Below, piece after piece: positions 17,885-32,000 of a DNA stretch of 32,000 nt. The stretch covers positions 1,320,001 to 1,352,000 of the forward strand of contig NZ_LN831039.1 of NCBI RefSeq assembly GCF_001457595.1. Direction: 5' to 3'. How positions within the stretch are numbered: position 1 is the first letter of the stretch; every line of letters begins with the position of its first letter. This DNA is from Mycolicibacterium smegmatis. Its GTDB lineage: Bacteria; Actinomycetota; Actinomycetes; Mycobacteriales; Mycobacteriaceae. The notes below the pieces were generated by a model that was not told the origin of the DNA, made no database searches, and saw only the letters and a list, made by a program, of their open reading frames with translations. The translations under genes and the position numbers were made by a program.

Positions 17885-18775
17885 TCAGCGGTCCGGTGCC
17901 CAGTAGTCGAGCATCGCGGCGAAGGTCTCGAACGCCGGAGCGGAGACCCCGTAGGGGGCCTCGAAATGCAGGCTGACTGGAAAACCGAGATCGATTACGC
18001 CGTCGATCACGCGCTTGTAGAGGTCCAGCATCTGGGCGCGCTTCTGCGCGGGCTCGCTCGCAGCCAACCGCCGCACGAACTGTTGTTCAGTCGCGACAGC
18101 CCCGTTGTCGGGGTCCTGGATGAGCCAGTCGATCAGGCCGACTTCGGATTCCATCTTCGGGACGAAACCGAACGACAAAAGGATCTCCGGGCGGTGGTCG
18201 GTGTTGCGCGAGAACTCGGTGAGGAAGTTGACGATCGCGTCGGAGTACAGCAGCTGGGTCATCCCGAAGGTGGCGCCCTCTTTGCACTTGAACCCGAATC
18301 GGCTCAGTTCGTCGTCCCTGGTCGGGATCAGGATCACGCCGCGGTGTTTCACCAGATGGGAAAAGGTCGACAGCGCGTCGGTCGGTGCGACTCCTGCGCC
18401 CTCACCGTCGGTCATGGTGCGCGGAACCCCGACAAACGCGATCCCCTCGAACCCGTGCTGAATCAACGCGGTCAACCGCCGACGCAGCGAGCGCTCACCG
18501 AGAAACGACGTGACCTGGGTGCACAGCCCACGCACGTCCGGAAGTTCGCGCTGGACCAACTCCCAGTAGTCGAGAACGTCGAGCTTTGGTTTCATCTCGA
18601 CGGGACGGCCGTCATCCTCCTCGATCATCCCGGGGATCATGATGTGGCGGATGCGTCCATCGAGACCGGCATCAACTGCCAACTTGCGCACCTTCTGCAA
18701 CTCCGCGAGCGCATGTGCCGTGCCGAGGTCCAGATTCGATGGGACAAGTTCCAGGGCAACAGTATTGAGAGTCAT
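17885..18775 (-). CDS. Non-canonical (flavin-independent) methylenetetrahydrofolate reductase-like protein (Rv2172c/MSMEG_6649 family)
   Basis: MTLNTVALELVPSNLD...RIRHIMIPGMIEEDDGRPVEMKPK...FVGVPRTM...GMTQLLYSD...ILLSFGFVPK. From memory this matches the mycobacterial Rv2172c-type MTHFR. ATG at 18775. The stop is 3 nt from the pyc stop. Confidence 0.7.
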   Translation of the reverse strand: MTLNTVALELVPSNLDLGTAHALAELQKVRKLAVDAGLDGRIRHIMIPGMIEEDDGRPVEMKPKLDVLDYWELVQRELPDVRGLCTQVTSFLGERSLRRRLTALIQHGFEGIAFVGVPRTMTDGEGAGVAPTDALSTFSHLVKHRGVILIPTRDDELSRFGFKCKEGATFGMTQLLYSDAIVNFLTEFSRNTDHRPEILLSFGFVPKMESEVGLIDWLIQDPDNGAVATEQQFVRRLAASEPAQKRAQMLDLYKRVIDGVIDLGFPVSLHFEAPYGVSAPAFETFAAMLDYWAPDR

Positions 18776-19683: not shown

Positions 19684-20100
19684 CTAACGCGATAGTCCCG
19701 GGTGGCGTCGCGGCATCGGGACAACGACATGCGTGGCTTCGGCTCCTTGGTGAGTGAGTTCCGCGATCGCTGCCGACAGTGTCCGGATCTTGGCACGTAG
19801 TTCTGTGTTTTCGGCGGCGAGTTGGTGATTGTGCTCGCGTGCCTGGGCGAGTTGACGTAGCAGGGCAAGGGCATTCGTGGCAACAGGTCCGGTTGCGGCG
19901 GCGGCTTTGAACTCGTTGAGCAGGTCGGCGTGGTGTTCGTAGAGTCGTTGTCGGGGTATCCCTGATTCGCTGGCCAACGCGACAACGGTGTGGGCGCCGT
20001 TGCCGTGTTGGGCGGTGTTGTCCCGGATTCGGCTCATCGCGGCCAGTACGAGCTGGCGCTCGTCATCGGTTCTGGTGGTGCGCGGCGGCGGCACGGTCAT
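19684..20100 (-). CDS. Small HTH + coiled-coil accessory protein downstream of the recombinase trio (138 aa)
   Basis: ATG at 20100 overlaps the ritC-like 3' end by 38 nt. HTH-like segment HTVVALASESGIPRQRLYEHH, then a heptad-like helix LLRQLAQAREHNHQLAAENTELRAKIRTLSAAIAELT. Possibly the family I recall as DUF6262 (unverified). Confidence 0.55.
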   Translation of the reverse strand: MTVPPPRTTRTDDERQLVLAAMSRIRDNTAQHGNGAHTVVALASESGIPRQRLYEHHADLLNEFKAAAATGPVATNALALLRQLAQAREHNHQLAAENTELRAKIRTLSAAIAELTHQGAEATHVVVPMPRRHPGLSR

Positions 20101-22237
20101 GTTGCTGGTGTCCTGTCCGGGTGGGTGTTGCTGGTCGGCTGGATTCGTGTGCGTCGAGTGCCTTTTCGTGCTCGGTGAGCCGTGCACGGATGCGTTGTCG
20201 TAGCGGTTCGGGCAGGGTCAGGCTGTTGAGGTCGTGTGTGAGCGTGTCGGCATGGGCGCGCAGGTTCGCGACGTCGCGATCGGTGCGGGCGGCGTTGGTG
20301 CAGTCGAGACGGCAGCGGCTCCAGACGGGTCCGGTCACGTCGTCGGTGTGTGGCAGGCACGCTGCAGTGGCGGGGCGAAATACACAGCTGACCAGCGCGC
20401 CGTGGTGGATCTGCAGATCCGGGTTGGCCATCGCGGTGTTGACCTGGCTGGTGGTGGTGACGGTTAGGCCGGCGAAAGTGTTCGCGCGGCCGACGCGGGC
20501 CTTGTATTCGTCGGCTGCGGGGCCGGAGACGTGTTCGCCGCGCTTGAGTCGGTGGGCGTCATCGTGGAGGGTTTCGGCGCGGTGCAGGAACTGTTCGAAG
20601 GTGATCTCGTCGAGAAATCCTGCGTCTGCTCCGCCAGCGTAACCTTGGATGATCTGTGTGTGCAGGTGACCGTATTGCGTTGCGCCGGCGATGGTTCCGC
20701 CGGGTCGGCGGACGATGTGCCAGGCCAGTGTGCGCCGCAAGCGCGGCACCTGAATGGCGCCCTGCGGGTCGTCGGGAATCAGCGGGTGATCGACGGCGGG
20801 GGCGACGGCGCGGTTGAACCAATCGATGAAACGGGTGATGTCGGTGTTGATCGACCCGGGTGTCCTCGTCCGGTGGGATCCGTAGAGGAACTGTTCCTGA
20901 GAGCACCACTGGAATCCGGGGAAGAGCAGATCGCCGCCGGTGATCTGTTCGAGAACACTGACCGCGTGGGCGGTTTCCTCGGTTACCACCCACGGGATCG
21001 TGGCCGGTGATCGGTCCCCACGCCGCTCACCTGTCTTGAGCTGGTGGCCGGACATGAACGTCAAACCCAGCTGCGGGTCTCGGGTGATGCATCCGCGACG
21101 CAGGTTGAGGGCTTCCCCGGTCCGGACACCGGACAGGTAGGCGATCACCAGAAAGCAAGCGGTGGTGATGTAGCGAAGGTGTTCGACGATTTCTGGGGCC
21201 TCGATAGGGCTGTGCCGCCATCGGCGCGTGCCGATCGTGCTGAACGTGGTCGTGCGGACCATGTCTGCCTCGATAGGCAGTGCGTGGGCGGCCAGCATGC
21301 TCGCCGTGTCGTTCATGCGTGTGAGTTCGGTGTGGTTGAGCCATCCCGCCACCGCCAGGCCCGTGAGATCGACCGAGGTGCTCTCGCCGGTGCTGACACC
21401 CGGAAGCGGGTCGCCGCGGTGGGCCAGGGCGGTCAGCAGACTGTCGAGCTGTGCGGTGGTGGTGTCGTGCAGCGACACCGTGCTGGTGCGAGCGCGGCGG
21501 ATATCCGGTGCGATGCGATGCGCCAACGCGCGCATCGCGAGGAGGTTGCGTGCGGCAGGAAGCAGATCGGCGGCGACAGTGGTGCTGACGGCCAGGGCCG
21601 CCGAGAGCAGTGGCTCCATGACATCGGGATCAATGCGAGCTGTGGTGTTCGGCTTACCCCAGGAGGACTCGTACTGAGCGAGTCCTCGCGCGCTGGCCCT
21701 GCCCCACAGTGTGGCGGCCGGAAGCCGACATTGCGTTGGAAGGACGTCCCGGTACAGGTGGAGCCGCTTGACTGCCTGCAGCGATCGGCGTTGAGTGCCG
21801 GCGCTGACCCCGGGTGCGTCGGTGACGTGGAGCAGATAGCTGTCGAGGTGGTCGATGCTGACGTGACTGAAGGAAAGTACCTCCCGCTCTACGAGCCACC
21901 TGGTGAACCGACGCAGCGGCACCAATTCACCCAGAATCGTCTTGACATGCGGGTACGGCGAACGCGACGCATCCAGACGGGGCGCGTTGTCAACGATGTT
22001 GAGCAAAGCGAACAGGTAGAGCTTGCAGGCCTGGCGAAACGGCTCCGGAAATCGACCCCAATGCACAGCTTGTCCGGCGCTGTGGCGGTCCTGGATGGCC
22101 GCGGACAGATCCCATACCGGGTCGCCGAATCGGCACCTGGTTGCAGGGATGAACAGCGGGCGGTTGAGTAGCACCTCGGTGTCCGGGGTGAGGTGGACAC
22201 CGGCCACCGTGTCGGGAATTCTGGCCGCTCGCGTCAC
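20063..22237 (-). CDS. Tyrosine recombinase, third of trio (RitC-like)
   Basis: Catalytic-region motifs: YLSGVRTGEALNLRRGCI (Arg I), LRRTLAWHIVRRPGG (Arg II region), QYGHLHTQIIQGYAG (His/Tyr). The GTG at 22237 overlaps the TGA of the preceding gene (GTGA). The ORF-track extension to 22387 is probably not translated. Confidence 0.8.
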   Translation of the reverse strand: MTRAARIPDTVAGVHLTPDTEVLLNRPLFIPATRCRFGDPVWDLSAAIQDRHSAGQAVHWGRFPEPFRQACKLYLFALLNIVDNAPRLDASRSPYPHVKTILGELVPLRRFTRWLVEREVLSFSHVSIDHLDSYLLHVTDAPGVSAGTQRRSLQAVKRLHLYRDVLPTQCRLPAATLWGRASARGLAQYESSWGKPNTTARIDPDVMEPLLSAALAVSTTVAADLLPAARNLLAMRALAHRIAPDIRRARTSTVSLHDTTTAQLDSLLTALAHRGDPLPGVSTGESTSVDLTGLAVAGWLNHTELTRMNDTASMLAAHALPIEADMVRTTTFSTIGTRRWRHSPIEAPEIVEHLRYITTACFLVIAYLSGVRTGEALNLRRGCITRDPQLGLTFMSGHQLKTGERRGDRSPATIPWVVTEETAHAVSVLEQITGGDLLFPGFQWCSQEQFLYGSHRTRTPGSINTDITRFIDWFNRAVAPAVDHPLIPDDPQGAIQVPRLRRTLAWHIVRRPGGTIAGATQYGHLHTQIIQGYAGGADAGFLDEITFEQFLHRAETLHDDAHRLKRGEHVSGPAADEYKARVGRANTFAGLTVTTTSQVNTAMANPDLQIHHGALVSCVFRPATAACLPHTDDVTGPVWSRCRLDCTNAARTDRDVANLRAHADTLTHDLNSLTLPEPLRQRIRARLTEHEKALDAHESSRPATPTRTGHQQHDRAAAAHHQNR

Positions 22238-24018
22238 GGTGCTTCCAAGTTTCCCGACAGCAACAGCGTTGCGGTGCGGTGATCGCGCTGAGCGATCTGG
22301 CCGCGCGCCGCATCCAGCTGGGCCGGTTCGTACTCGGCGAAGATGTCCTCCAGCTGCGCCAGTGGACCGGCATACTCGGTGATCCACTGCGCGATCGGCA
22401 TCTCGGTGCGCAGGTCACGAAGCCGGTCGGCGACTACCAGCTGAATGGGCAGGTGCCGCGGAAACGCGCGGGCGTTGCTGCAGTCCAGACATGCCAGAAA
22501 CGACGCGCGGCAGCGTCTTCCGTCGACCGGGGAATGCTCGAAATCAGCACAGCTCCCCAAAACGGCATCCTGGCCAGAACCGTTGTCCTCGATGCTGGAA
22601 TGTACGGTCATCGAGCGGCGGTACAATGCTTGGGCGACCTGGGCATTGAGCGCCTCGGCCACGATGTGAAACCCCTCGGTGCGCACCGAATCCATCCGGC
22701 CCAGATAGCCCGCTAACGTCGCTGGCGTGTGCGCTGTCGGCATACGGACCCGTTCCAGATACGTTTTACGTAACCGGTCCATGCTGATCCCCATCAGCAG
22801 CTGATCACCTTCGGTATCCCCGGTCAGCCACGGCGCCATCCACCGTCGCCGTGCGTCGACACCACTGGCGGTGCTGCTGATGCCGTAGCCGAAGCGTTTG
22901 CCTTCCACCGCGTCGGGCTGGGCGCTGTAATAGACAAAAGCCTGCCGGCTACCGGTCAGCGCGCGAGCCGGCTCGGTCAGCTCCAGCAACAACATGAACA
23001 CCCCGTACGCCGTCGTGAGCGACGTATTGAGCACCGCGGCGCGCTGATGGTCGCCCCCGAGTGGCCGAAGCTCTGGGCGCAGCGCTGTCACCGGCACCGT
23101 CATCACCGATCGCCGGCCGCGGCGGGCTTTGTCAGCGTGGACGAAGACGATGCCGGGTTCGTCCGGGCTGCTCGCGGATCGGTGTGGGGCCGGCAGTGCG
23201 TCCAGCGTCGAGAGGTTTAGGCCGGTCAGCCCGGCCAGCAGCACACCGAACGCCCACGCCTCACCCGGTGTCACATGCAGCAACGGCAACAACCGACACC
23301 CGCCGGCAGACCTGACCGCCCGGCGTGTCACGTACGCCCTGGCACCCGACGCGGTGCGCGGAAAGTCACCTTCCCGGGCGCAGTGATCGAGCACTTCGGC
23401 CAGACTGCGACGCGGATCGGCTGTGGGGAGATGATCGAACCGACCGCCGCGAAAATCGGCAACCATCTCCCAATGCATCCGCAGCCGACTTCGCGCCCGC
23501 CGAACGATTGCCCGCGCCACCACATTGATCCGGCGAAACTCGTCAGCCGAATATGGTTGTCGCGCTGAAAGATTCCTTTTATGGCGCACCCGCGCGAATC
23601 CATGACAGACCTGCTCGGAGACGACAGGACTGCACCGCAGCAACGTCTTGAGCGCCGGCGCGGGACCCGGTCCACTGGGCACTCGACAGGACATGGCCAG
23701 CAACCCGGCATCAGCGACAGACAGCGCGGCCAGTCCCTCGATCCCCGGGCGGTTCTCGTCCAGCCAACAGCACGCGTGCCGGGCGGCCTGCCACAACGCA
23801 CCAGCGCCCCGCACCCGCTTGGACACTCCCAACACCCCGGTAGCTTCCTCGAACGCGACCGCAAAATCGTGACACACGCCGCCGTTACCCGGGAGGCGAC
23901 CGAAATCGAAATCCTTCCAAACCCCTCCGTCCTCGCTGACAAACCTCACGATCAGACCGCGGCGCCGCGATACGGGACGCCACGCTGGATCCGGCTGCGC
24001 CGCAGGTCGACCCGTCAC
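22234..24018 (-). CDS. Tyrosine recombinase-like protein, second of trio (RitB-like, divergent)
   Basis: 594 aa, located between two clear recombinases. C-terminal region DRLRKTYLERV...AHTPATLAGYLGR resembles the R...H...Y boxes. The GTG at 24018 overlaps the TGA of the ritA-like gene (GTGA). Confidence 0.7.
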   Translation of the reverse strand: MTGRPAAQPDPAWRPVSRRRGLIVRFVSEDGGVWKDFDFGRLPGNGGVCHDFAVAFEEATGVLGVSKRVRGAGALWQAARHACCWLDENRPGIEGLAALSVADAGLLAMSCRVPSGPGPAPALKTLLRCSPVVSEQVCHGFARVRHKRNLSARQPYSADEFRRINVVARAIVRRARSRLRMHWEMVADFRGGRFDHLPTADPRRSLAEVLDHCAREGDFPRTASGARAYVTRRAVRSAGGCRLLPLLHVTPGEAWAFGVLLAGLTGLNLSTLDALPAPHRSASSPDEPGIVFVHADKARRGRRSVMTVPVTALRPELRPLGGDHQRAAVLNTSLTTAYGVFMLLLELTEPARALTGSRQAFVYYSAQPDAVEGKRFGYGISSTASGVDARRRWMAPWLTGDTEGDQLLMGISMDRLRKTYLERVRMPTAHTPATLAGYLGRMDSVRTEGFHIVAEALNAQVAQALYRRSMTVHSSIEDNGSGQDAVLGSCADFEHSPVDGRRCRASFLACLDCSNARAFPRHLPIQLVVADRLRDLRTEMPIAQWITEYAGPLAQLEDIFAEYEPAQLDAARGQIAQRDHRTATLLLSGNLEAP

Positions 24019-25523
24019 CGATGCCCTGTCAACACACGCGGCTCACCAACGCCGACCGTGGCAACGAGACGCTCCAGGGATTGCCGATCATCGGCATCCA
24101 TCAATGCGACAAGTTCCTCGACCTGCAATGCTTGAAAGGGCTCCAGATACACATTCCGGGTCACCTCAGCGCTGCGATGCCCCAACAAGGTGGCCAGCAG
24201 GAACCACACATCGCCGAGCTGATTGCGGAAGTCTCGCTGCTCCTGTGCGGTCAACATGCCGGTGCGGCGCCACGCCACGAACGTCGCGATGCAGTACCAG
24301 CGCAGCGCGAAGGAATGCCTCAACATGTGGGGACGACACCACAGCGGAGCACCGTGCTCGTGCGTCAATGCCCCTGCGACTCTCGCGTTCGCCCTGTCAA
24401 AAGTCTTGTACCACGCGTGCTTCGGGCGGGGCGTCCCGTCATGGTTGAGCCACAACCACATCGGCTCCAATCCACCACGCACCCGGCGAAACATCTTCAT
24501 CCGCAACAGCGGATCGAGCGCATCCAAACTCACCACGCGCCGCGAACCCTCTTCATCGACAACGTCCAATCGTCTGTCGCTGCGAACCCGTTCAACGATC
24601 CAGCTATCCACCACCTGCTCGTAGCGACCCGCCGCCTGCGCACGGGCGACGGTCGCAATACGACTGCCCTCGTGCAGATAGAAATCAACCTGTTGAGAGA
24701 CGCGGTGTCGCATCCAGAAGGTTCGTCCGCTACCACCTTTGGCGCAGGCGGACGCAACACGCGAACGCGTCAGGCCCTCCGAGCCCGGTGTCGGCACCTC
24801 GCTCGTCAACACACTGGACCACTCACCGATGCGCAAACCGGTCCCGAACAAGCCGTCGACGAATGCGGTATCACGATCCTCGGTCGATCCCCGCCAATCA
24901 GGGTGCGGCATACCAGCCCCGGTGAAGCCACGCAAACCTAGGTTGCGCCACAGTCGAAATGCTTGTGGAGTAAGCCATTTCACGTCTGACCTGCGCATCC
25001 CCGACGGGGTGCTCTCCAAAGTCACACGCTGCCCACCCGCCCATGACGTGGCTATCGCCCGTGCTCGAACCGGGTTCTCAACTCCCTGATGCTCGGCCGC
25101 CCACAAATAGAACCCGCGGATCGCCGACCGATCAACGCAGAAGCTGGCAGCACTCACACACTGGGGATTCTCCCGCGCCGACAGTCGCCACTCCTTGAAC
25201 GCAGCGAACTCCGATCGCGACGCGTGGTCCCACCGAACATCCACCGCGTGCAAGAAATCCAGCCAGACCTTCAACGACAAGGCGTACCGGCGCACCGTCG
25301 CCGTTGCTCGCCGTCTTAACACCGGATCGCGCCAATAGGCGTTCACCACAGCATCCGCACGGCCCCACGGATCAAGAAAGAACGGTGTGCCATCACGCGC
25401 ACCATTGCGCTTCGCCCAGTCCGCAATGTCACCCAACCCGGGCACCACATCGTCCACCGAGACGAAACGGCGCTGGAAGTCATAGAAGTGCAGAGACCAA
25501 CCGGCAGCAGATTCACCAGCCAT
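24015..25523 (-). CDS. Tyrosine recombinase, first of trio (RitA-like)
   Basis: GLRIGEWSSVL (Arg I), RPHMLRHSFALRWY (HxxR), LLGHRSAEVTRNVYLEP (His...Tyr). ATG at 25523 is preceded by GAGAGGGA. Confidence 0.85.
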   Translation of the reverse strand: MAGESAAGWSLHFYDFQRRFVSVDDVVPGLGDIADWAKRNGARDGTPFFLDPWGRADAVVNAYWRDPVLRRRATATVRRYALSLKVWLDFLHAVDVRWDHASRSEFAAFKEWRLSARENPQCVSAASFCVDRSAIRGFYLWAAEHQGVENPVRARAIATSWAGGQRVTLESTPSGMRRSDVKWLTPQAFRLWRNLGLRGFTGAGMPHPDWRGSTEDRDTAFVDGLFGTGLRIGEWSSVLTSEVPTPGSEGLTRSRVASACAKGGSGRTFWMRHRVSQQVDFYLHEGSRIATVARAQAAGRYEQVVDSWIVERVRSDRRLDVVDEEGSRRVVSLDALDPLLRMKMFRRVRGGLEPMWLWLNHDGTPRPKHAWYKTFDRANARVAGALTHEHGAPLWCRPHMLRHSFALRWYCIATFVAWRRTGMLTAQEQRDFRNQLGDVWFLLATLLGHRSAEVTRNVYLEPFQALQVEELVALMDADDRQSLERLVATVGVGEPRVLTGHR

Positions 25524-25788: not shown

Positions 25789-25875
25789 TCAGAGGAAGTG
25801 GCTGGCCTGAGCAACCTGGACTTCGGAACTCCACCGTGGAACAGCGCTCAGGATTTCTGGCATGGTCTGATCGAC
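25789..25875 (-). pseudogene. 3' fragment (last 28 codons) of the gene interrupted by the ISL3 element
   Basis: The minus-strand reading VDQTMPEILSAVPRWSSEVQVAQASHFL* continues in frame from codon 142 of the 28566..28141 fragment once the IS and one target-duplication copy are removed. Confidence 0.7.
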
Positions 25876-25883
25876 ATAATCGG
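25876..25883. repeat. Target-site duplication ATAATCGG (left copy) of the ISL3 element
   Basis: The identical 8-mer recurs at 28141..28148 immediately outside the right IR. The last GG overlaps the first two bases of the left IR, so the exact boundary is ambiguous by 2 nt. Confidence 0.8.
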
Positions 25884-25908
25884 GCTCTTCGCAGTTGAGG
25901 GTGTAGAG
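25882..25908. repeat. ISL3 left terminal inverted repeat
   Basis: GGGCTCTTCGCAGTTGAGGGTGTAGAG; 25/27 match to the reverse complement of 28114..28140. Confidence 0.85.
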
Positions 25909-25992
25909 GTCGTCGGCGCGTCGGTGCCGGGATAGGGGTCGAGGTCTTCCGATGATGGAGGTTCCTACGCCATCCATCTGAAAGACCTCGAC

Positions 25993-27315
25993 GTGCCTGA
26001 CGCTACCGGTCGGGCGGGCTTCGCCTGCGCTGACCTGACGACTTTCTGCCGCCTCGACGAGCTCGGGTTGGAGGTGACCGGCCAACGCCTCGACCCTGAT
26101 CGGGCCGTGCTGGCGTGCCGGGTCGCCGATGAGGATCGGTGGTGCCGCCGCTGCGGCGAAGAAGGCGTTGTACGTGACAGCGTGACTCGCACGTTGGCTC
26201 ATGAACCGTTCGGGTGGCGACCCACGGCTTTGCTGGTCACGATCCGCCGTTACCGTTGCGCCGGCTGCGCTCATGTGTGGCGCCAGGATGCCAGCGCCGC
26301 AGCCGAACCGCGGGCCAGGCTGTCCCGGCGTGCTCTGCGGTGGGCGCTGGAAGCCCTTGTCTGCCAACACCTGTCGGTGGCCCGGGTCGCCGAGGCGCTT
26401 GCGGTGTCGTGGAACACTGCCAACAACGCCGTGCTCGCCGAAGGTCAGCGGGTGCTCATCGCCGATCCGGCCCGGTTCGATGGCGTCGCGGTGATCGGCG
26501 TCGATGAGCACGTGTGGCGGCACACTCGCCGCGGCGACAAGTACGTCACCGTCATCATCGATCTCACGCCCGTGCGTGACGGGACCGGCCCCGCACGGCT
26601 GCTCGACATGGTGGAGGGCCGCTCCAAGAAGGCGTTCGCCGACTGGCTGGCACAGCGGCCACAGGAGTGGCGTGATCGTGTGGACGTTGTTGCCATGGAC
26701 GGGTTCTCCGGGTTCAAGACCGCCGCCACCGAAGAACTGCCTGACGCGGCCACGGTGATGGACCCCTTCCACGTGGTCCGCCTGGCCGGCAACGCCCTCG
26801 ACGAGTGCCGACGCCGCGTGCAGCTGGCCACCTGCGGGCACCGCGGCCGCAGCACCGACCCGCTCTACCGATCGCGACGCACCCTGCACACCGGGGCCGA
26901 CCTGCTCACCGACCGCCAGAAAGCCCGACTGGCCGCACTGTTCGCCGCCAACGCGCACGCCGAGATCGAGGCCACCTGGGCGATGTATCAACGCACCGTG
27001 GCCGCCTACCGCGAACCAGACCGCACCAAGGGCCGCACCATGATGGCTGCACTGATCACCACGCTGAGCACAGGCGTCCCCACGTCGCTGACCGAGCTGA
27101 TCACCCTCGGGCGGACACTGAAGAAGCGTGCCGCCGACGTCCTGGCCTACTTCGACCGCCCCGGCACCTCCAACGGGCCGACCGAAGCGATCAACGGCCG
27201 CCTCGAACACCTGCGCGGATCCGCCCTGGGCTTCCGCAACCTCACCAACTACATCGCCCGGTCCCTGCTCGAGACCGGAGGCTTCCGAACCCAGCTCCGT
27301 CAACCTCGGCGGTGA
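25993..27315 (+). CDS. tnpA: ISL3-family transposase
   Basis: Zn-finger-like N-terminus (CRRCGEEG...YRCAGCAHVW). DDE core blocks IGVDEHVWRH, VVAMDGFSGFKTA, VMDPFHVVRLA. C-terminal TNGPTEAINGRLEHLRGSALGFRNLTNY is typical of ISL3. GTG at 25993. Confidence 0.9.
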   Translation: MPDATGRAGFACADLTTFCRLDELGLEVTGQRLDPDRAVLACRVADEDRWCRRCGEEGVVRDSVTRTLAHEPFGWRPTALLVTIRRYRCAGCAHVWRQDASAAAEPRARLSRRALRWALEALVCQHLSVARVAEALAVSWNTANNAVLAEGQRVLIADPARFDGVAVIGVDEHVWRHTRRGDKYVTVIIDLTPVRDGTGPARLLDMVEGRSKKAFADWLAQRPQEWRDRVDVVAMDGFSGFKTAATEELPDAATVMDPFHVVRLAGNALDECRRRVQLATCGHRGRSTDPLYRSRRTLHTGADLLTDRQKARLAALFAANAHAEIEATWAMYQRTVAAYREPDRTKGRTMMAALITTLSTGVPTSLTELITLGRTLKKRAADVLAYFDRPGTSNGPTEAINGRLEHLRGSALGFRNLTNYIARSLLETGGFRTQLRQPRR

Positions 27316-27322
27316 AGAATCC

Positions 27323-28075
27323 TCAACGCGTGTTCAACGCGGCCAGAGCGTCATTGGTCTCGGCCACCGAGAAACGGTCGGGGTGCCAGCCCCGGGGCAG
27401 CCAGTCCCTCATCTCCTGCGCACCGAGTCCCATCGGCGTTTCCCGCGGGTCGTACCCGCCGCGAACCCACGCAGCCAACTCCTCATAGCCGCCCAGGCCA
27501 CCACAGTCCTCCGGCGGACAGGCCATCTTTCCCGTCAGACACACCGCAGCCGGGGGCGGATCATCGAAAACGTCTTCGACCACGAGCACGTGGTCCCATC
27601 CGTCGCCGAAGTCGTAATCGTAGAACAACCGCTCGCCCTTATCGGACACCACCTGATCGAGGCGCACGCTGTCCTCGACGACACCGTCGTCGCCTTCGCT
27701 GAGATCAAACCCGGTGACGAAGTAGGCACGGGTCCGCCGGTCCGCCCCGACACCGAACTTATGCAGATGACTGTCCTGCCAGCCCATAACGACCTGCAGC
27801 ACAACATGGAGCTCATCGAGCATGAGGTCGCCCGGCAGGTCCAGCCGACGCCAGATCGGCGGCTTGGCGTACATCAGGTCGACGCGCACCCGGAAGCCCC
27901 GCGCACGATCCGGCACCGCCCGCACCTCGGGCGTCGGCTCATCGAACATTCCCGCGAACACGTTCCGACCAGCGTCGGCCATTAGCTTCTGCAGCAACGC
28001 CAGGTCCACACTGCCCCCGGACACTCCGCTCTTCCTCTTGCTCTTCCGCTTCTTCTCCGGCACACCCCAAGCCAA
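27323..28075 (-). CDS. pRiA4b ORF-3-like (MM3350-like) protein, IS passenger 'TnpR'-type
   Basis: FRVRVDLMYAKPPIWRRLDLPGDLMLDELHVVLQVVMGWQDSHLHKF...YDYDFGDGWDH...CPPEDCGG is the hallmark of the pRiA4b ORF-3 family. Start uncertain (TTG 28075 or ATG 27982). Confidence 0.8.
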   Translation of the reverse strand: MAWGVPEKKRKSKRKSGVSGGSVDLALLQKLMADAGRNVFAGMFDEPTPEVRAVPDRARGFRVRVDLMYAKPPIWRRLDLPGDLMLDELHVVLQVVMGWQDSHLHKFGVGADRRTRAYFVTGFDLSEGDDGVVEDSVRLDQVVSDKGERLFYDYDFGDGWDHVLVVEDVFDDPPPAAVCLTGKMACPPEDCGGLGGYEELAAWVRGGYDPRETPMGLGAQEMRDWLPRGWHPDRFSVAETNDALAALNTR

Positions 28076-28113
28076 CCAGACCCCTCGATCACAGCGCGAA
28101 AGCAGCTGATCGT

Positions 28114-28140
28114 CTCTACACCGTCAAGTGCGAAGAGCCC
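28114..28140. repeat. ISL3 right terminal inverted repeat
   Basis: CTCTACACCGTCAAGTGCGAAGAGCCC; the reverse complement matches the left IR at 25/27. Confidence 0.85.
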
Positions 28141-28148
28141 ATAATCGG
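28141..28148. repeat. Target-site duplication ATAATCGG (right copy)
   Basis: Identical to 25876..25883. Confidence 0.8.
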
Positions 28149-28566
28149 GAGGCGCTGACTTTTCGAGGCTATCCACCAGTAGAGAGTAGAAAGATGCCTG
28201 ATGGGCAGTGAACGACAATAATGCGCTTGGCGATGTCACCAATTCGAGAGTGAGCCCTGACGGTGTTCGCTTTGGGGTCGAGCGGATAATCGTCCATGCC
28301 GTACGACCGTGGTTGCGGTCAGTCTGTTGCCAGGAGTAAATGCTCACGCTTGCAGCAACTATCAGGGCCGTGCTGGTCGTCCTGATCTGGTCGGCGAGAC
28401 GCATCTCTAATAGGACCCCGAGCGTCGATGCTATACCGCTGTAGCGGATTTCTATTACTTGCGCCTCGGTCAGTGCGTCCTGGTCGGCAAATGGGTTGAC
28501 TGCATGAGCGTCGCCAACGGTTGGATTCCCGGGGGACGATGTGAATAGCTGTTCAAGCGTTGGCAT
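28141..28566 (-). pseudogene. 5' fragment (142 codons) of a 170-aa gene split by the ISL3 insertion. It is the fourth gene of the toxin locus and a possible second or orphan immunity protein.
   Basis: ATG at 28566 (MPTLEQLFTSSPGNPTVGDAH...SLEKSAPPDY). After codon 142 the ORF runs into the IS right end and becomes Arg/Cys-rich junk. The native continuation is at 25875..25789. Confidence 0.65.
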
Positions 28567-28667
28567 TCGTCGAGCGTACGTGCTACAGGTAGAGTTCGAG
28601 GGGCGACATTTGTGTAATGGCAGCGCTGGTTGTCAGCGTCTCACTTGTCAGGTTGCGGTGGTGCAAT

Positions 28668-29021
28668 TTAACGTGCCATCGATAAGGCGCGCGCTTTTTC
28701 CAGAAATTCACGTTGCTCGGGCGTGCTGGCCGAGACCGGTCGGTTGATACGGTCAAGGATAACGATCGACGGTGCGAGTACGGACTCCACCATTGCGCGC
28801 CCTACCTGATGGGAGCTGCGGAAATTCTCCTCGAAAACTTTCCGCACAAACGTCTCGAAGGTGGCGGGGTCAATGTAGTAGTAATCCGAAGCCATCGCGC
28901 TTAGTCCAGTGGGGAGGCCGAAGTGATCGCCGAGTTGAGTGAGGAACCGCACGTATAGATCGCCGACGCGTAAAGCGGGACTCCACACGGTGTCATCACC
29001 GACGTCGAAGACGTAGCTCAC
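28668..29021 (-). CDS. Putative cognate immunity protein (117 aa)
   Basis: The GTG at 29021 overlaps the TGA of the toxin gene (GTGA). Sequence VSYVFDVGDDTVWSPALRVGDLYVRFLTQLGDHFGLPTGL...YYIDPATFETFVRKVFEE. The N-terminal F-D-x-G-D-x-T-x-W pattern resembles a small actinobacterial family I recall as DUF6086 (unverified). Lower GC than the core genes. Alternative TTG at 29030. Confidence 0.6.
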   Translation of the reverse strand: MSYVFDVGDDTVWSPALRVGDLYVRFLTQLGDHFGLPTGLSAMASDYYYIDPATFETFVRKVFEENFRSSHQVGRAMVESVLAPSIVILDRINRPVSASTPEQREFLEKARALSMAR

Positions 29022-30760
29022 GAGGTCCAATCTATCAGAATTGTTACGCCCGGGTGCTTCGCTCTGAGTTCGGCTGCAGCCTGCTCAACTGCAGCCCTTA
29101 GCGCAGGATCCACGCCTGGGTTGGTAAATCTGATTCCGATCGGCGCGTTTTCTAGGCCGACGATGAATTGTTGAGATTCGATATATTTCTCTATCTTGTT
29201 CACGAATTGTTTATTTACCCACTGTTCGGGGTTCCCTGCGGACGTTGCAGACTTTTCTTCCCACAGAACCCCATTTTCAACGCGGTCGATGTCGGTGATC
29301 GTTCTTCCTAGGTCACCGGGCTTGTCGCTCTGTATTTCCGTCGCTCCATCTGGGATGTGGTATCTGTCATCGCTTCCCAACATTGGCCGGGACGAATCGG
29401 GGAAGGACACATCACCATCGACCGTGGGCGGCGAGTGATGATCGGGAGTGGGAACGCTGTCAGCGTGCTCGAGGCGTGCTGGGGACTCGGTGGCGGGACC
29501 CGACGACTGCGGATGTTCGGACGATGTGGGTGTCGGATGGTCGACCGGCGCTGTCCCAGGACGATCAAGGGTGGGCGGTGGGTGATGGCCGGCAAGGTTT
29601 GCTGCTGCATCGTCGGCCCGAGCTTCTGCTGCGGCAAGGGCTTTCGGGAGAACGTTTTCACCTGTGAGTCCAGCGGCGCCTTCGAAGGCCTCGCGGCCGA
29701 GTAGGGTTTTCAAGCCGTGGATGGCGGCTTCGCCGCCTCCTTTGACCATGGCCGCCGCCTCGGGTGCTCCGACCGCGAGGGTGACAGCGTTGAAAAGAAG
29801 TTCATCATCTGGGGTGACGCGGCCAGGGTCCGGTGTGTTGGTGGAGACCAGTTTCCCGTCTTTGAAGCTGTAGGAGGTGCCTTTCGCCTGGTCGAAGAAC
29901 TCGCCCGTGCCGTTCTTCAGTTGTCCATAGATTTGGAAGGGCACACCCTTGTCGACGCCGTTGATCAGGAAGTGTCCGTCCGGAGATACCGTCACGGACT
30001 TCGGGTCGATGTTCGAGTAGTCGGGAATGTTCCCCAGGTCGTTGAGGGCGGTGGCCAGTTCAGCTTTCAGCTTGCGGACCTTTTCGAATGCAGGGCTGCC
30101 GGCCCCACCTGTATACGCGGCGCTCATCGCCTCATCGAGCTGCTTCTGTATGCCGCGAATTTTGGTCATCTGGTCGATGACGGCCTGGTTGGTCGCCTCT
30201 TGGAGCTCTTCGAGCAGAACGGTGGGATCTGTGTGCGGCGCACCATCGGGTACCTGGATTGGTTTGTCGGCGACCGCAACCCGCAGCGCGTTCCCTATCT
30301 CGACATCGGTGGCAGTGGCTTTGACAAGTAGAGCTTTGAGCCGCTCCTCGGCGGTCGCCCGCACCCGTTCTCGTTGTGCGGCTTCGTCTTCGTCGGTAAC
30401 GTCCGCGGCTTGAGGATCCACCACCGAGCCATTCGGCTGTATCTGCATACCCAATGACTCGGGCTCGGCGCGCGCGGCTGCCAGTTCGTTGATACACCAA
30501 CGCACGTCTTTGATCGCGGTATCAATGATGCCCGCGACTGCGGTTGTTTCACGATGCTGTTGGTCGACTTCGACCATCGCTTTGCCATGTTCAGTACGCC
30601 ACGCCTCGGCCGCGTCTCCATGCCAATCGTCCAAGCTCTTCTTGGTGGCATCGAGGCCGTCGCCTAGCCGCCGGAGGCTATGACCGGCATTGAGCACACT
30701 GTCTTTCACCTGTTGAAGAAGGCCGACGTCCCACTGCTCGATGTCCGGAATCGAGACCAC
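29018..30760 (-). CDS. Putative T7SS-associated polymorphic toxin: WXG-type N-terminal helical domain, central region, Pro-rich linker, C-terminal PD-(D/E)xK-like domain (580 aa)
   Basis: N-terminus MVSIPDIEQWDVGLLQQVKDSV...LDDWHGDAAEAW (WxG at residues 46-48). Pro/His-rich linker at residues about 391-450. The C-terminal 125 aa contain TITDIDRVENGVLWEEKS (D490/D492...E501-x-K503), consistent with a restriction-endonuclease-fold toxin. The GTG at 30760 lies 3 nt after the upstream stop. Confidence 0.75.
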   Translation of the reverse strand: MVSIPDIEQWDVGLLQQVKDSVLNAGHSLRRLGDGLDATKKSLDDWHGDAAEAWRTEHGKAMVEVDQQHRETTAVAGIIDTAIKDVRWCINELAAARAEPESLGMQIQPNGSVVDPQAADVTDEDEAAQRERVRATAEERLKALLVKATATDVEIGNALRVAVADKPIQVPDGAPHTDPTVLLEELQEATNQAVIDQMTKIRGIQKQLDEAMSAAYTGGAGSPAFEKVRKLKAELATALNDLGNIPDYSNIDPKSVTVSPDGHFLINGVDKGVPFQIYGQLKNGTGEFFDQAKGTSYSFKDGKLVSTNTPDPGRVTPDDELLFNAVTLAVGAPEAAAMVKGGGEAAIHGLKTLLGREAFEGAAGLTGENVLPKALAAAEARADDAAANLAGHHPPPTLDRPGTAPVDHPTPTSSEHPQSSGPATESPARLEHADSVPTPDHHSPPTVDGDVSFPDSSRPMLGSDDRYHIPDGATEIQSDKPGDLGRTITDIDRVENGVLWEEKSATSAGNPEQWVNKQFVNKIEKYIESQQFIVGLENAPIGIRFTNPGVDPALRAAVEQAAAELRAKHPGVTILIDWTS

Positions 30761-30763
30761 GGG

Positions 30764-31072
30764 CTAAAGGGACGTTTCGGACTTCTGAATCTCGTCGGAG
30801 GCGCTATGGTCCGTTGTGAGATAGCCCGCAACGGCTTCGGACATCGCGCTACCGATCCGTCCTACCTCGGTGTGCAATGCAGCCCGTTTGTCCGCCCAAC
30901 ACGTCGCCACGTGCCCGAGGGCGGCGGCGATCTCGCCGTTCCACTTTCCGGCGGCACTCACGAGCTCATCGTCGTGGTTGGAGTGTTCACGTCGTGACGT
31001 GTCCATGTGATCAAGCATGGCGCTTGAAGCGTGATGAAGACTCTCGACATTGACACGCAACGGCTCAGGCAT
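30764..31072 (-). CDS. WXG100/EspC-like small T7SS substrate or chaperone-type protein (102 aa)
   Basis: Size of about 100 aa. Central W44-N-G46 (KWNGE) and C-terminal Y84-L-T-T-D88 (YxxxD secretion motif). N-terminal LRVNVESLHHAS is like the EspC-type L.V....L...A pattern. ATG at 31072 is preceded by GAGGGGGA (31076..31083). Confidence 0.7.
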   Translation of the reverse strand: MPEPLRVNVESLHHASSAMLDHMDTSRREHSNHDDELVSAAGKWNGEIAAALGHVATCWADKRAALHTEVGRIGSAMSEAVAGYLTTDHSASDEIQKSETSL

Positions 31073-31102
31073 AGTTCCCCCTCAGAGAAATACTGATAGA
31101 CA

Positions 31103-31108
31103 ATTTTA
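31103..31108 (-). promoter_or_regulatory. Candidate -10 element (TAAAAT) for the WXG/toxin operon
   Basis: The AT-rich stretch CTAGTAAAATTGTCTATCAGTATTTCTCTGAGGGGGAACTATG on the minus strand has the hexamer about 31 nt upstream of the ATG. No experimental support. Confidence 0.3.
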
Positions 31109-31280
31109 CTAGCCCGGATTTTTCGTCGATGGTGATGGCGGTGGATTTGTAGGGCGTGATGGTTGGTCGGGTGACGTCTGCGGTCACAAGGCATGCTGGG
31201 GTGGTCCCGTGTCGCCGGGTGGGGCGGGCTTTCCCATGGCCGGTAGGTCTTTCGTGATCGATCGGTCGGGAGGCCGGCTG

Positions 31281-32000
31281 TTATCCGAAGGCGGTGCGCA
31301 GGTGTTGCCAGGCGGTGGCGATCGCCGATGCCCAGCGCCAGGTGGCGTCGATGCGCAGCCGGAGTTGGCGGGCGCCGCGGGTGATGCGGGCTGCGACGTG
31401 CAGCACGCGGTAGCGGAACGTGGCGATCTCGGCGCGGGCCAGCGTCGGATCACTGGTGAATCCGATGAGCCGTGCCCAGGTGACCAGGTCGGTGGCGGCC
31501 AGGACGATCTCGAGCCAGGCGGCGTTGGCCCAGAAGCCGTGACACGGCAGGTTGCGTAGGCCGGTGTTCTTGAGTTCGCGGATGCGGTCCTCGACGCGGG
31601 CGTGCTGGCGGTGCCGCAACTCCAGGCCGGCGACTTGGCCGGCCACGACACCGGTGGGTGTGTCGGTGATGAACGCGGTGACGCGCATTCCGTCGGTGTC
31701 GGTGAACCGCAGCTGGGCGCCGGGATGCGGTCTCTCCTTGCGCAGGATCAGCCGGGTGCCCGGCGGCCAGCTGTTGAGGTTGACCAAGGTGGTGGCCTCG
31801 GCGACCCAGGCGCCGTCACGGATGCCGCCGTCGGTGTCGATGGCCGGGTACCAGCCCTCGGCAAGGTTGAGGGTGTCGGCGGCGTCCTGGACGCGGGCGT
31901 CGACGGGGTAGCCGAAGGAGAATCCGACTCCCTGCTCGCGGCAGGCGTCGGCGAATCGGTGGGTGGCTCCGGCGGTGTCGCAACGCACCAGCACCTGGGG
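31281..32000 (-). CDS. IS1380-family transposase, C-terminal part (5' end beyond the window)
   Basis: ..LELRHRQHARVEDRIRELKNTGLRNLPCHGFWANAAWLEIVLAATDLVTWARLIG...RYRVLHVAARITRGARQLRLRIDATWRWA.. is typical of the C-terminal region of IS1380-family DDE transposases. The reading frame stays open to the window edge. The IS terminus must lie between about 31130 and 31280. Confidence 0.8.
   Translation of the reverse strand, partial: PQVLVRCDTAGATHRFADACREQGVGFSFGYPVDARVQDAADTLNLAEGWYPAIDTDGGIRDGAWVAEATTLVNLNSWPPGTRLILRKERPHPGAQLRFTDTDGMRVTAFITDTPTGVVAGQVAGLELRHRQHARVEDRIRELKNTGLRNLPCHGFWANAAWLEIVLAATDLVTWARLIGFTSDPTLARAEIATFRYRVLHVAARITRGARQLRLRIDATWRWASAIATAWQHLRTAFG

Follow-up and report, generated by a model that had tools for sequence, protein, structure and literature searches.

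A putative insertion-sequence-flanked type VII polymorphic toxin cassette in Mycolicibacterium smegmatis, with DUF6086 as the predicted immunity protein

What is made, and to what end, by a compact group of minus-strand genes in Mycolicibacterium smegmatis whose products are named in public records only as 'hypothetical protein' or 'DUF6086 family protein'? The genes lie in a 32,000-nucleotide stretch of the chromosome (assembly GCF_001457595.1, contig NZ_LN831039.1, positions 1,320,001 to 1,352,000), referred to here as the window, and coordinates below are those of the window. An initial annotation had proposed a WXG-type partner protein, a WXG-fused nuclease toxin and an immunity gene. The analysis described here suggests, with a probability of about 0.72, that the locus is an accessory cassette flanked by insertion sequences (IS) and encoding a type VII (ESX) polymorphic toxin of the PEST/Eat-Tap family, which acts in the manner set out below.

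Four genes make up the locus, encoding in order a 102-aa WXG100-like protein, a 580-aa toxin, a 117-aa DUF6086 protein and a 170-aa protein whose gene is split by an ISL3-family element. The TAG of the first gene is separated by 3 nt from the GTG start of the toxin gene at 30760, and the TGA of the toxin gene overlaps the GTG of the 117-aa gene at 29021 in the sequence GTGA; the four minus-strand open reading frames (ORFs), their coordinates and both junctions are all as first annotated. The region from 28141 to 31110 is unique DNA bounded by the ISL3 element on one side and by an upstream DDE_Tnp_1_4 IS on the other, with a G+C content of 57-61% against 65-70% for most of the window. Four or more assemblies, assigned to M. 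smegmatis or M. goodii, contain identical copies of the cassette, and the same gene layout recurs at homologous loci, where the downstream gene differs with each toxin C-terminus. The arrangement is therefore not a product of chance.

The 117-aa product of the third gene, encoded on the minus strand at 28668-29021 from the GTG that overlaps the toxin stop codon, matches DUF6086 (PF19564) over profile positions 1-118 of 119 (E=6.5e-37; 126.7 bits against a gathering threshold of 31.9), and the Pfam match starts exactly at the GTG at 29021. A scan limited to one genome per species yielded 39 loci that encode the C-terminal domain of the toxin, from Nocardia, Streptomyces, Actinomadura, Saccharopolyspora, a verrucomicrobium and a cyanobacterium. 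In all 39 the toxin domain is immediately followed, on its own strand, by a DUF6086 homologue; tblastn detected it at 36, and a profile made from those sequences detected it at the other three. Where both matches were long enough for the distance to be measured, the gap between toxin domain and DUF6086 was -1 to 11 nt in 32 of 34 loci. Pairwise identities of the toxin domain and of the downstream protein are correlated (r=0.84), the latter diverging faster, with a mean identity of 39% compared with 58% for the toxin domain. When read by eye, the DUF6086 protein contains neither a signal peptide nor a membrane segment, which suggests that the target of the toxin is cytoplasmic. From this conserved linkage, DUF6086 is the predicted immunity protein of the C-terminal domain, in agreement with the role first assigned to the 117-aa ORF. 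A literature search for DUF6086 found no paper, and the supplements of three key papers hold nothing on the C-terminal domain.

Some loci appear to have been degraded. In L024, L027 and L038 the match to the toxin domain is broken up over different reading frames, while in L034 the toxin domain stands alone as a 118-aa ORF; all four nevertheless retain a DUF6086 gene downstream. Such loci resemble modules of a toxin end and its immunity gene that are decaying or have been orphaned.

The C-terminal domain itself occupies residues 484-580 of the 580-aa protein (29021-29311, minus strand). An exhaustive profile search found it in 202 representative clusters at 50% identity, and in 150 of 168 matches it stands at the extreme C-terminus. 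The carriers range from 61 to 2,625 aa and include Rhs proteins, an Rhs protein with a T7SS_signal domain, an ALF-repeat/PT-HINT protein that resembles umbrella toxins, and a Scabin-like fusion; a weak WXG100_2 match is seen in at least one Nocardia carrier of about 470 aa. As the domain is found C-terminally on so many types of carrier, it can be regarded as a genuine polymorphic-toxin module, and its distribution indicates that one warhead serves several delivery systems. Individual carriers illustrate the range. A UmbC-like ALF-repeat/PT-HINT protein of Streptomyces sioyaensis (L036, 1275-5363) ends in this domain, as do an Rhs protein from Streptomyces that bears a T7SS_signal domain at its N-terminus (L021, 675-5378) and a 1,003-aa protein, P0130, with an Abhydrolase_8 domain.

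The whole toxin, encoded on the minus strand at 29018-30760 from a GTG start to a TGA stop, was compared with 130 mycobacterial homologues, the best 120 of which were mapped onto it. Residues 1-175 (30236-30760) are common to about 22-33 of these 120 and would form a WXG-type helical secretion domain, which contains the sequence DDWHGDAAEAW at residues 44-54 and, within it, the single WxG of the protein (W46-H-G48). Residues 1-182 are 29-32% identical (tblastn E 3e-15 to 4e-9) to the N-termini of genes described as 'polymorphic toxin … WXG motif' in 12 M. abscessus prophages. The prophage matches include prophiGD05-2 gp63, the PEST2 representative, the locus of which encodes a WXG protein, a toxin and an immunity protein. 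W10, W46 and G48 are invariant over divergent N-terminal modules, and the Pfam matches of the toxin N-terminus to WXG100, WXG100_2 and EspB_PPE are all below threshold. The homology to the prophage toxins and the invariant W-x-G bear out the WXG-type N-terminus that had been proposed.

A second conserved region, at residues ~180-400 (29561-30223), is present in about 107-118 of the 120 homologues, irrespective of the modules at either end. This central domain has no Pfam match, and a profile search of the PDB with it was empty. It is ~50-70% identical in nearly all 120 homologues and occurs behind at least three kinds of N-terminal secretion domain, one of them Hydro_N_hd (PF22905); it could have a role in translocation or be a pre-toxin module. 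The Pro/His-rich linker, which had been placed straight after the first 100 residues, is in fact preceded by this 220-aa domain and lies at ~400-480. Together with a pre-toxin stretch it covers residues ~401-483 (29312-29560), over which homologue coverage drops from ~99 to ~6 and where the first structural model gave a pLDDT below 50. The final ~100 residues are common to only 4-6 of the 120 homologues. The others end instead in TNT, Tox-REase-5, Colicin_D, CdiA_C_tRNase, Gln_amidase or DUF6883 domains. The suggestion that the C-terminus is polymorphic is upheld by this pattern, in which the N-terminal and central parts are retained among homologues and the C-terminus and the downstream gene are exchanged together. 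Scans of the toxin and of its C-terminal domain against Pfam, NCBIfam, PADLOC and PHROGs gave nothing significant. By its homologues, the 580-aa protein is a predicted modular polymorphic toxin.

The gene upstream of the toxin, at 30764-31072 on the minus strand, has a strong Shine-Dalgarno sequence (GAGGGGG) ahead of its ATG. Its 102-aa product contains both motifs that the initial annotation had pointed out, KWNGE at residues 43-47 (W44-N-G46) and YLTTD at residues 84-88 (Y84-LTT-D88); within the family W44, G46 and D88 are invariant, and the tyrosine is replaced by phenylalanine in 2 of 7 sequences. The reading of the protein as a WXG100-like partner is supported. It is matched over its full length by Pfam WXG100 (PF06013; E=6.5e-4) and by TIGR03930 (E=1.1e-3), at scores below the respective thresholds (20.4 bits against 27.3, and 19.2 bits against 44.85). 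A search of the PDB with the family profile returned 13 sequences at E<=10, all of them substrates of type VII secretion systems (E 0.13-9). They comprise ESAT-6, EsxB, MAB_3112, EspB and a chain of 103 aa whose record reads 'Uncharacterized protein' and which is presumably T. curvata EsxB. The protein is also 26-28% identical, in register, to the products of the WXG genes upstream of the homologous toxin P0004 and of prophiGD05-2 gp63, and each homologous toxin locus inspected has a WXG100-type gene encoding 102-134 aa, 2-16 nt upstream of the toxin gene. On these grounds it is the predicted WXG100-like partner of the toxin, equivalent to the proteins termed Tap or 'WXG effector' elsewhere.

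The fourth gene gives the locus a history. Its 5' part, codons 1-142 of 170, lies at 28141-28566, and its 3' part, codons 143-170 and the stop codon, was located at 25789-25875 by tblastn and by reading the sequence; both are on the minus strand. A tblastn search with the 170-aa protein of a related locus (L049) aligned residues 136-166 to 25896-25804 (E=4e-5). Between the two parts is an ISL3-family element of 2,259 bp (25882-28140), recognised from Pfam matches, from 27-bp terminal inverted repeats that are 93% complementary, and from a GATTAT target duplication at 25876-25881 and 28141-28146. The split of a 170-aa gene by an IS, as originally described, can thus be read directly from the repeats and the duplication. 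An alternative 194-aa version of the gene was rejected, as its last ~46 residues (beyond ~148) are an out-of-frame read-through into the IS.

A counterpart of this gene, 58% identical to it, encodes a 170-aa protein and stands right after the gene for another toxin, P0005, which shares residues 1-449 with the 580-aa toxin and has a different C-terminus. The fourth gene is accordingly a predicted orphan immunity gene whose cognate toxin end is not the present one. Its resemblance to the gene at P0005 implies that the locus acquired the present toxin-end/DUF6086 module ahead of an older immunity gene, which was later disrupted by ISL3. The P0004 locus, which combines another N-terminal module with this C-terminus and DUF6086, has a frameshifted remnant of the orphan gene after DUF6086 (L045, 4472-4813). 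This remnant implies that the module swap is older than the divergence of these loci.

Taken together, these features suggest a mechanism. The 102-aa protein and the helical N-terminal domain of the toxin would associate in a helical bundle that presents the WxG and YxxxD secretion signals. An ESX system would then export the complex, and the analogy to EatA and CpnT makes ESX-4 the likeliest; the central domain and the Pro/His-rich linker would carry the C-terminal toxin domain. This domain would most likely be a metal-dependent nuclease that attacks the cytoplasmic nucleic acid of a mycobacterial competitor. In the producing cell, the translationally coupled and signal-less DUF6086 protein, so consistently linked to the domain, would neutralise the toxin, presumably by binding it. 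The fourth gene, inactivated by ISL3, is the predicted leftover immunity gene of a different toxin end and marks an earlier module swap.

The nuclease assignment was approached through the conserved residues and a structural model. Strict invariance across 116 sequences is limited to three residues, an Asp, a Glu and a Lys, arranged as (I)D-x8-E-x-K with a variable middle residue. In the 580-aa toxin, which contains TITDIDRVENGVLWEEKS at residues 487-504, these are D492, E501 and K503; D492, and not D490 as first proposed, is the invariant aspartate. A D-[EQ]xK site is common to the ten Tox-REase clades that have been described (PMC3482391). An AlphaFold (AF2) model of the domain, built from 52 sequences, has a pLDDT of 96.1 and shows a β-hairpin that bears the D and the ExK, followed by α-β-α-β. 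The overall order, β-β-α-β-α-β, is consistent with that of the restriction-endonuclease core. An hhalign comparison of the domain with the Tox-REase-5 C-termini of sister toxins aligned the triad and the strand that follows it (P=6e-4), compared with P=0.037-0.15 for unrelated control profiles. Since the D…E-x-K triad is invariant, the C-terminal domain is probably a restriction-endonuclease-type nuclease, and within the Tox-REase families it is possible that it falls in the REase-4 or REase-7 clade.

A number of results weigh against the proposal, most of them concerning the nuclease and others the export and setting of the cassette. The hhalign probability to Tox-REase-5 is just 28%. None of 52 domain members has a Pfam match, the models searched including Tox-REase-2, -3, -5, -7 and -9, and the domain profile has no match among PDB sequences. 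Foldseek searches of PDB and BFVD with the pLDDT-96 model found no significant neighbour, the best matches having E=0.13 and E=0.027, and the Hef/XPF nuclease, although among the top weak matches, has a TMq of only 0.42. Neither the 102-aa protein nor the toxin N-terminus has a WXG100 match above the curated threshold. The window contains no ESX locus, and the cassette does not lie in a recognisable prophage; there are no phage structural genes and no PHROG matches, and the flanks consist of IS elements and recombinases. Lastly, the upstream IS ends ~35 nt before the first gene, such that the native promoter may have been lost, and a consensus scan of the coding strand found no promoter-like site.

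The results on the fold bear most directly on the alternative that the cassette and its export are as proposed, whilst the C-terminal domain is not a nuclease at all but a compact α/β enzyme or a binding module directed elsewhere, for instance at an RNA-specific, nucleotide or cell-envelope target, the D…E-x-K triad then having another chemical role. In favour of this are a very confident model without a significant structural neighbour in PDB or BFVD, no Pfam match to any Tox-REase family, a low hhalign probability, and top Foldseek matches that are generic α/β sandwiches. Set against this are the invariant D, E and K with their variable middle residue, the classic signature of the ten Tox-REase clades, together with a strand order in which the hairpin carrying D and ExK precedes α-β-α-β as in the restriction-endonuclease core. 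The only nucleic-acid enzymes among the weak Foldseek matches are Hef/XPF and CdiA-CT EC869, both PD-(D/E)xK nucleases if, as we assume, the latter has that fold, and the absence of a signal peptide from the immunity protein, as judged by eye, points to the cytoplasm. A non-nuclease payload is for these reasons considered unlikely, albeit the most credible of the alternatives. Since the pLDDT-96 model has no significant structural neighbour, it might be argued further that the domain represents an undescribed toxin fold or activity, delivered in Actinobacteria by ESX/T7SS, Rhs and umbrella-type ALF/PT-HINT routes with DUF6086 as its immunity protein; this is doubtful. The PD-(D/E)xK nuclease of the initial annotation is retained as likely for its triad, found in 116 of 116 sequences, and for the in-register hhalign alignment, although the Pfam and PDB sequence searches gave no match and Foldseek no significant neighbour.

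A second alternative questions not the enzyme but its use. The cassette might serve no interbacterial competition and be an intracellular addiction or abortive-infection module by which a mobile island is stabilised or defended, or it might be directed at eukaryotic grazers or hosts in the manner of CpnT/TNT. It does lie within mobile DNA, with an IS on both sides and a cluster of tyrosine recombinases nearby, and the authors of the study on PEST cassettes have left competition, virulence and phage defence open (PMC10654092). A PADLOC scan, however, gave no defence match, and a toxin-antitoxin pair that acts only inside the cell would have no use for a WXG partner of its own or for a secretion domain at the N-terminus. 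Rhs and umbrella-type (ALF/PT-HINT) proteins, which are exported antibacterial weapons, end in this toxin domain too, and the locus retains an orphan immunity gene, as is typical of competition loci. EatA, moreover, demonstrates that ESX-4-dependent killing between mycobacteria exists (PMC13444075). A function outside competition is improbable on this evidence, and delivery by an ESX system into competing mycobacteria is the preferred interpretation.

That the cassette is a silent relic, its promoter removed by the upstream IS and the locus decaying, would accord with the IS end ~35 nt from the first start codon, the lack of a promoter-like site on the coding strand and the disruption of the neighbouring fourth gene, but is quite improbable given three intact and translationally coupled ORFs, identical in at least four assemblies, a strong Shine-Dalgarno sequence, and the outward promoters that IS ends often supply. 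Scans of the cassette for promoters and terminators were in any event uninformative, and consensus scans are a poor guide to mycobacterial promoters.

The surroundings of the cassette are a mosaic of mobile elements. Upstream is the 3' part of the DDE_Tnp_1_4 IS (31108-32000, minus strand), which runs off the window and encodes a transposase of 468 aa in the full record; its end near 31108 was deduced from plasmid matches. In each of the assemblies the cassette is immediately preceded by this IS. In two genomes with different left flanks (L041 and L042), the common DNA begins exactly at the far end of the IS, and the IS and the cassette may move or rearrange as one unit. Within the ISL3 element on the other side are the transposase gene (25993-27315, plus strand) and a PRiA4b ORF-3-like passenger gene (27323-28075, minus strand), both assigned by Pfam. 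Plasmids of M. avium carry genes with ~91% identity to the 5' region of the passenger gene, and the element is probably multi-copy, as contigs of other assemblies break there.

Beyond ISL3, the minus strand from 20063 to 25523 holds three large overlapping ORFs of 502, 594 and 774 aa. The 502-aa ORF encodes a tyrosine integrase and the 774-aa ORF has weak integrase matches; judged by these matches, the three are probably a tyrosine-recombinase trio. They mark where the mobile mosaic gives way to chromosomal genes such as that for MTHFR (17885-18775). Two further origins for the locus were considered and rejected. There is no tRNA gene in the window, which excludes a tRNA integration site within it, and a megablast search of plasmids with the locus matched only the flanking mobile elements, which argues against a segment of a known plasmid.

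The significance of the locus is threefold. A domain of unknown function, DUF6086, gains a predicted function as the immunity protein of this toxin domain, and an unannotated C-terminal toxin domain is defined, with ~200 clusters at 50% identity on actinobacterial carriers of the ESX, Rhs and umbrella types. In addition, a putative PEST/Eat-type cassette is found outside prophages and in a model organism, M. smegmatis, where toxicity, immunity and ESX dependence are genetically easier to study than in M. abscessus.

The initial annotation held that such systems are barely characterised in mycobacteria, a view that is now outdated, as the class has been described both as PEST cassettes (PMC10654092) and as the EatA/Tap/EatI system (PMC13444075). 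The architecture, the logic of toxicity and immunity, and ESX-4-dependent competition are already published, and the present locus opens no new class. Absent from the literature searched are the toxin-domain family, its pairing with DUF6086, and a non-prophage, IS-flanked cassette of this kind in M. smegmatis.

Two better-known groups can be set aside. Membership of the LXG toxins of the Firmicute T7SSb was rejected because no LXG family appears among the Pfam matches of the toxin at E<=1. CpnT/EsxE-EsxF, or PEST3-type, systems have two upstream esx genes and an N-terminal domain of ~300 aa with two WXG motifs (PMC10654092), whereas here there is one upstream gene, with the IS abutting the 102-aa gene, and a single WxG in the toxin.

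In its C-terminal domain, the toxin resembles the Tox-REase families (PMC3482391), with which it shares an invariant D…E-x-K on a β-hairpin followed by α-β-α-β, and a C-terminal position on Rhs, HINT and WXG carriers. It differs from them in its predicted immunity protein, as DUF6086 is not among the Imm families listed for the Tox-REase clades.

The EatA/TapA1/TapA2/EatI system of M. abscessus, reported in 2026, is secreted by ESX-4 and acts in inter-mycobacterial competition and killing. Loci with a Tap protein, a toxin and an immunity protein are numerous across Mycobacteriales and include nucleases, and for 47% of them no function is predicted (PMC13444075). By its described layout the EatA system has the same elements: small helical partners are encoded upstream of a toxin whose N-terminal carrier domain is helical, and an immunity gene comes after it. 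There are two partner genes in that system compared with one here, its payload is a GH183 arabinanase whereas here it is a probable cytoplasmic nuclease, and EatI is a lipoprotein, unlike the cytoplasmic DUF6086.

The closest relatives are the PEST cassettes of M. abscessus prophages, described by the Hatfull laboratory and composed of a WXG100 effector, a polymorphic toxin and an immunity gene. They fall into three superfamilies with predicted PE/PPE-like heterodimers, toxicity and immunity have been shown in M. smegmatis, and they are almost confined to the M. abscessus/chelonae complex (PMC10654092). Neither that paper nor its supplements mention DUF6086. In PEST2 (prophiGD05-2 gp64/gp63/gp62), as in the M. 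smegmatis cassette, a WXG protein of ~100 aa, a WXG-domain toxin and an immunity gene follow one another across short or overlapping junctions; the N-terminal domains of the toxins are 29-32% identical and the small partners 28% identical. The central and C-terminal domains are different, that of prophiGD05-2 including a RipA-like peptidase, and the M. smegmatis cassette lies between chromosomal IS elements instead of in a prophage. In both groups the toxin end and the immunity gene are exchanged together, and on the basis of these shared features the cassette is assigned, by homology, to the PEST/Eat-type family.

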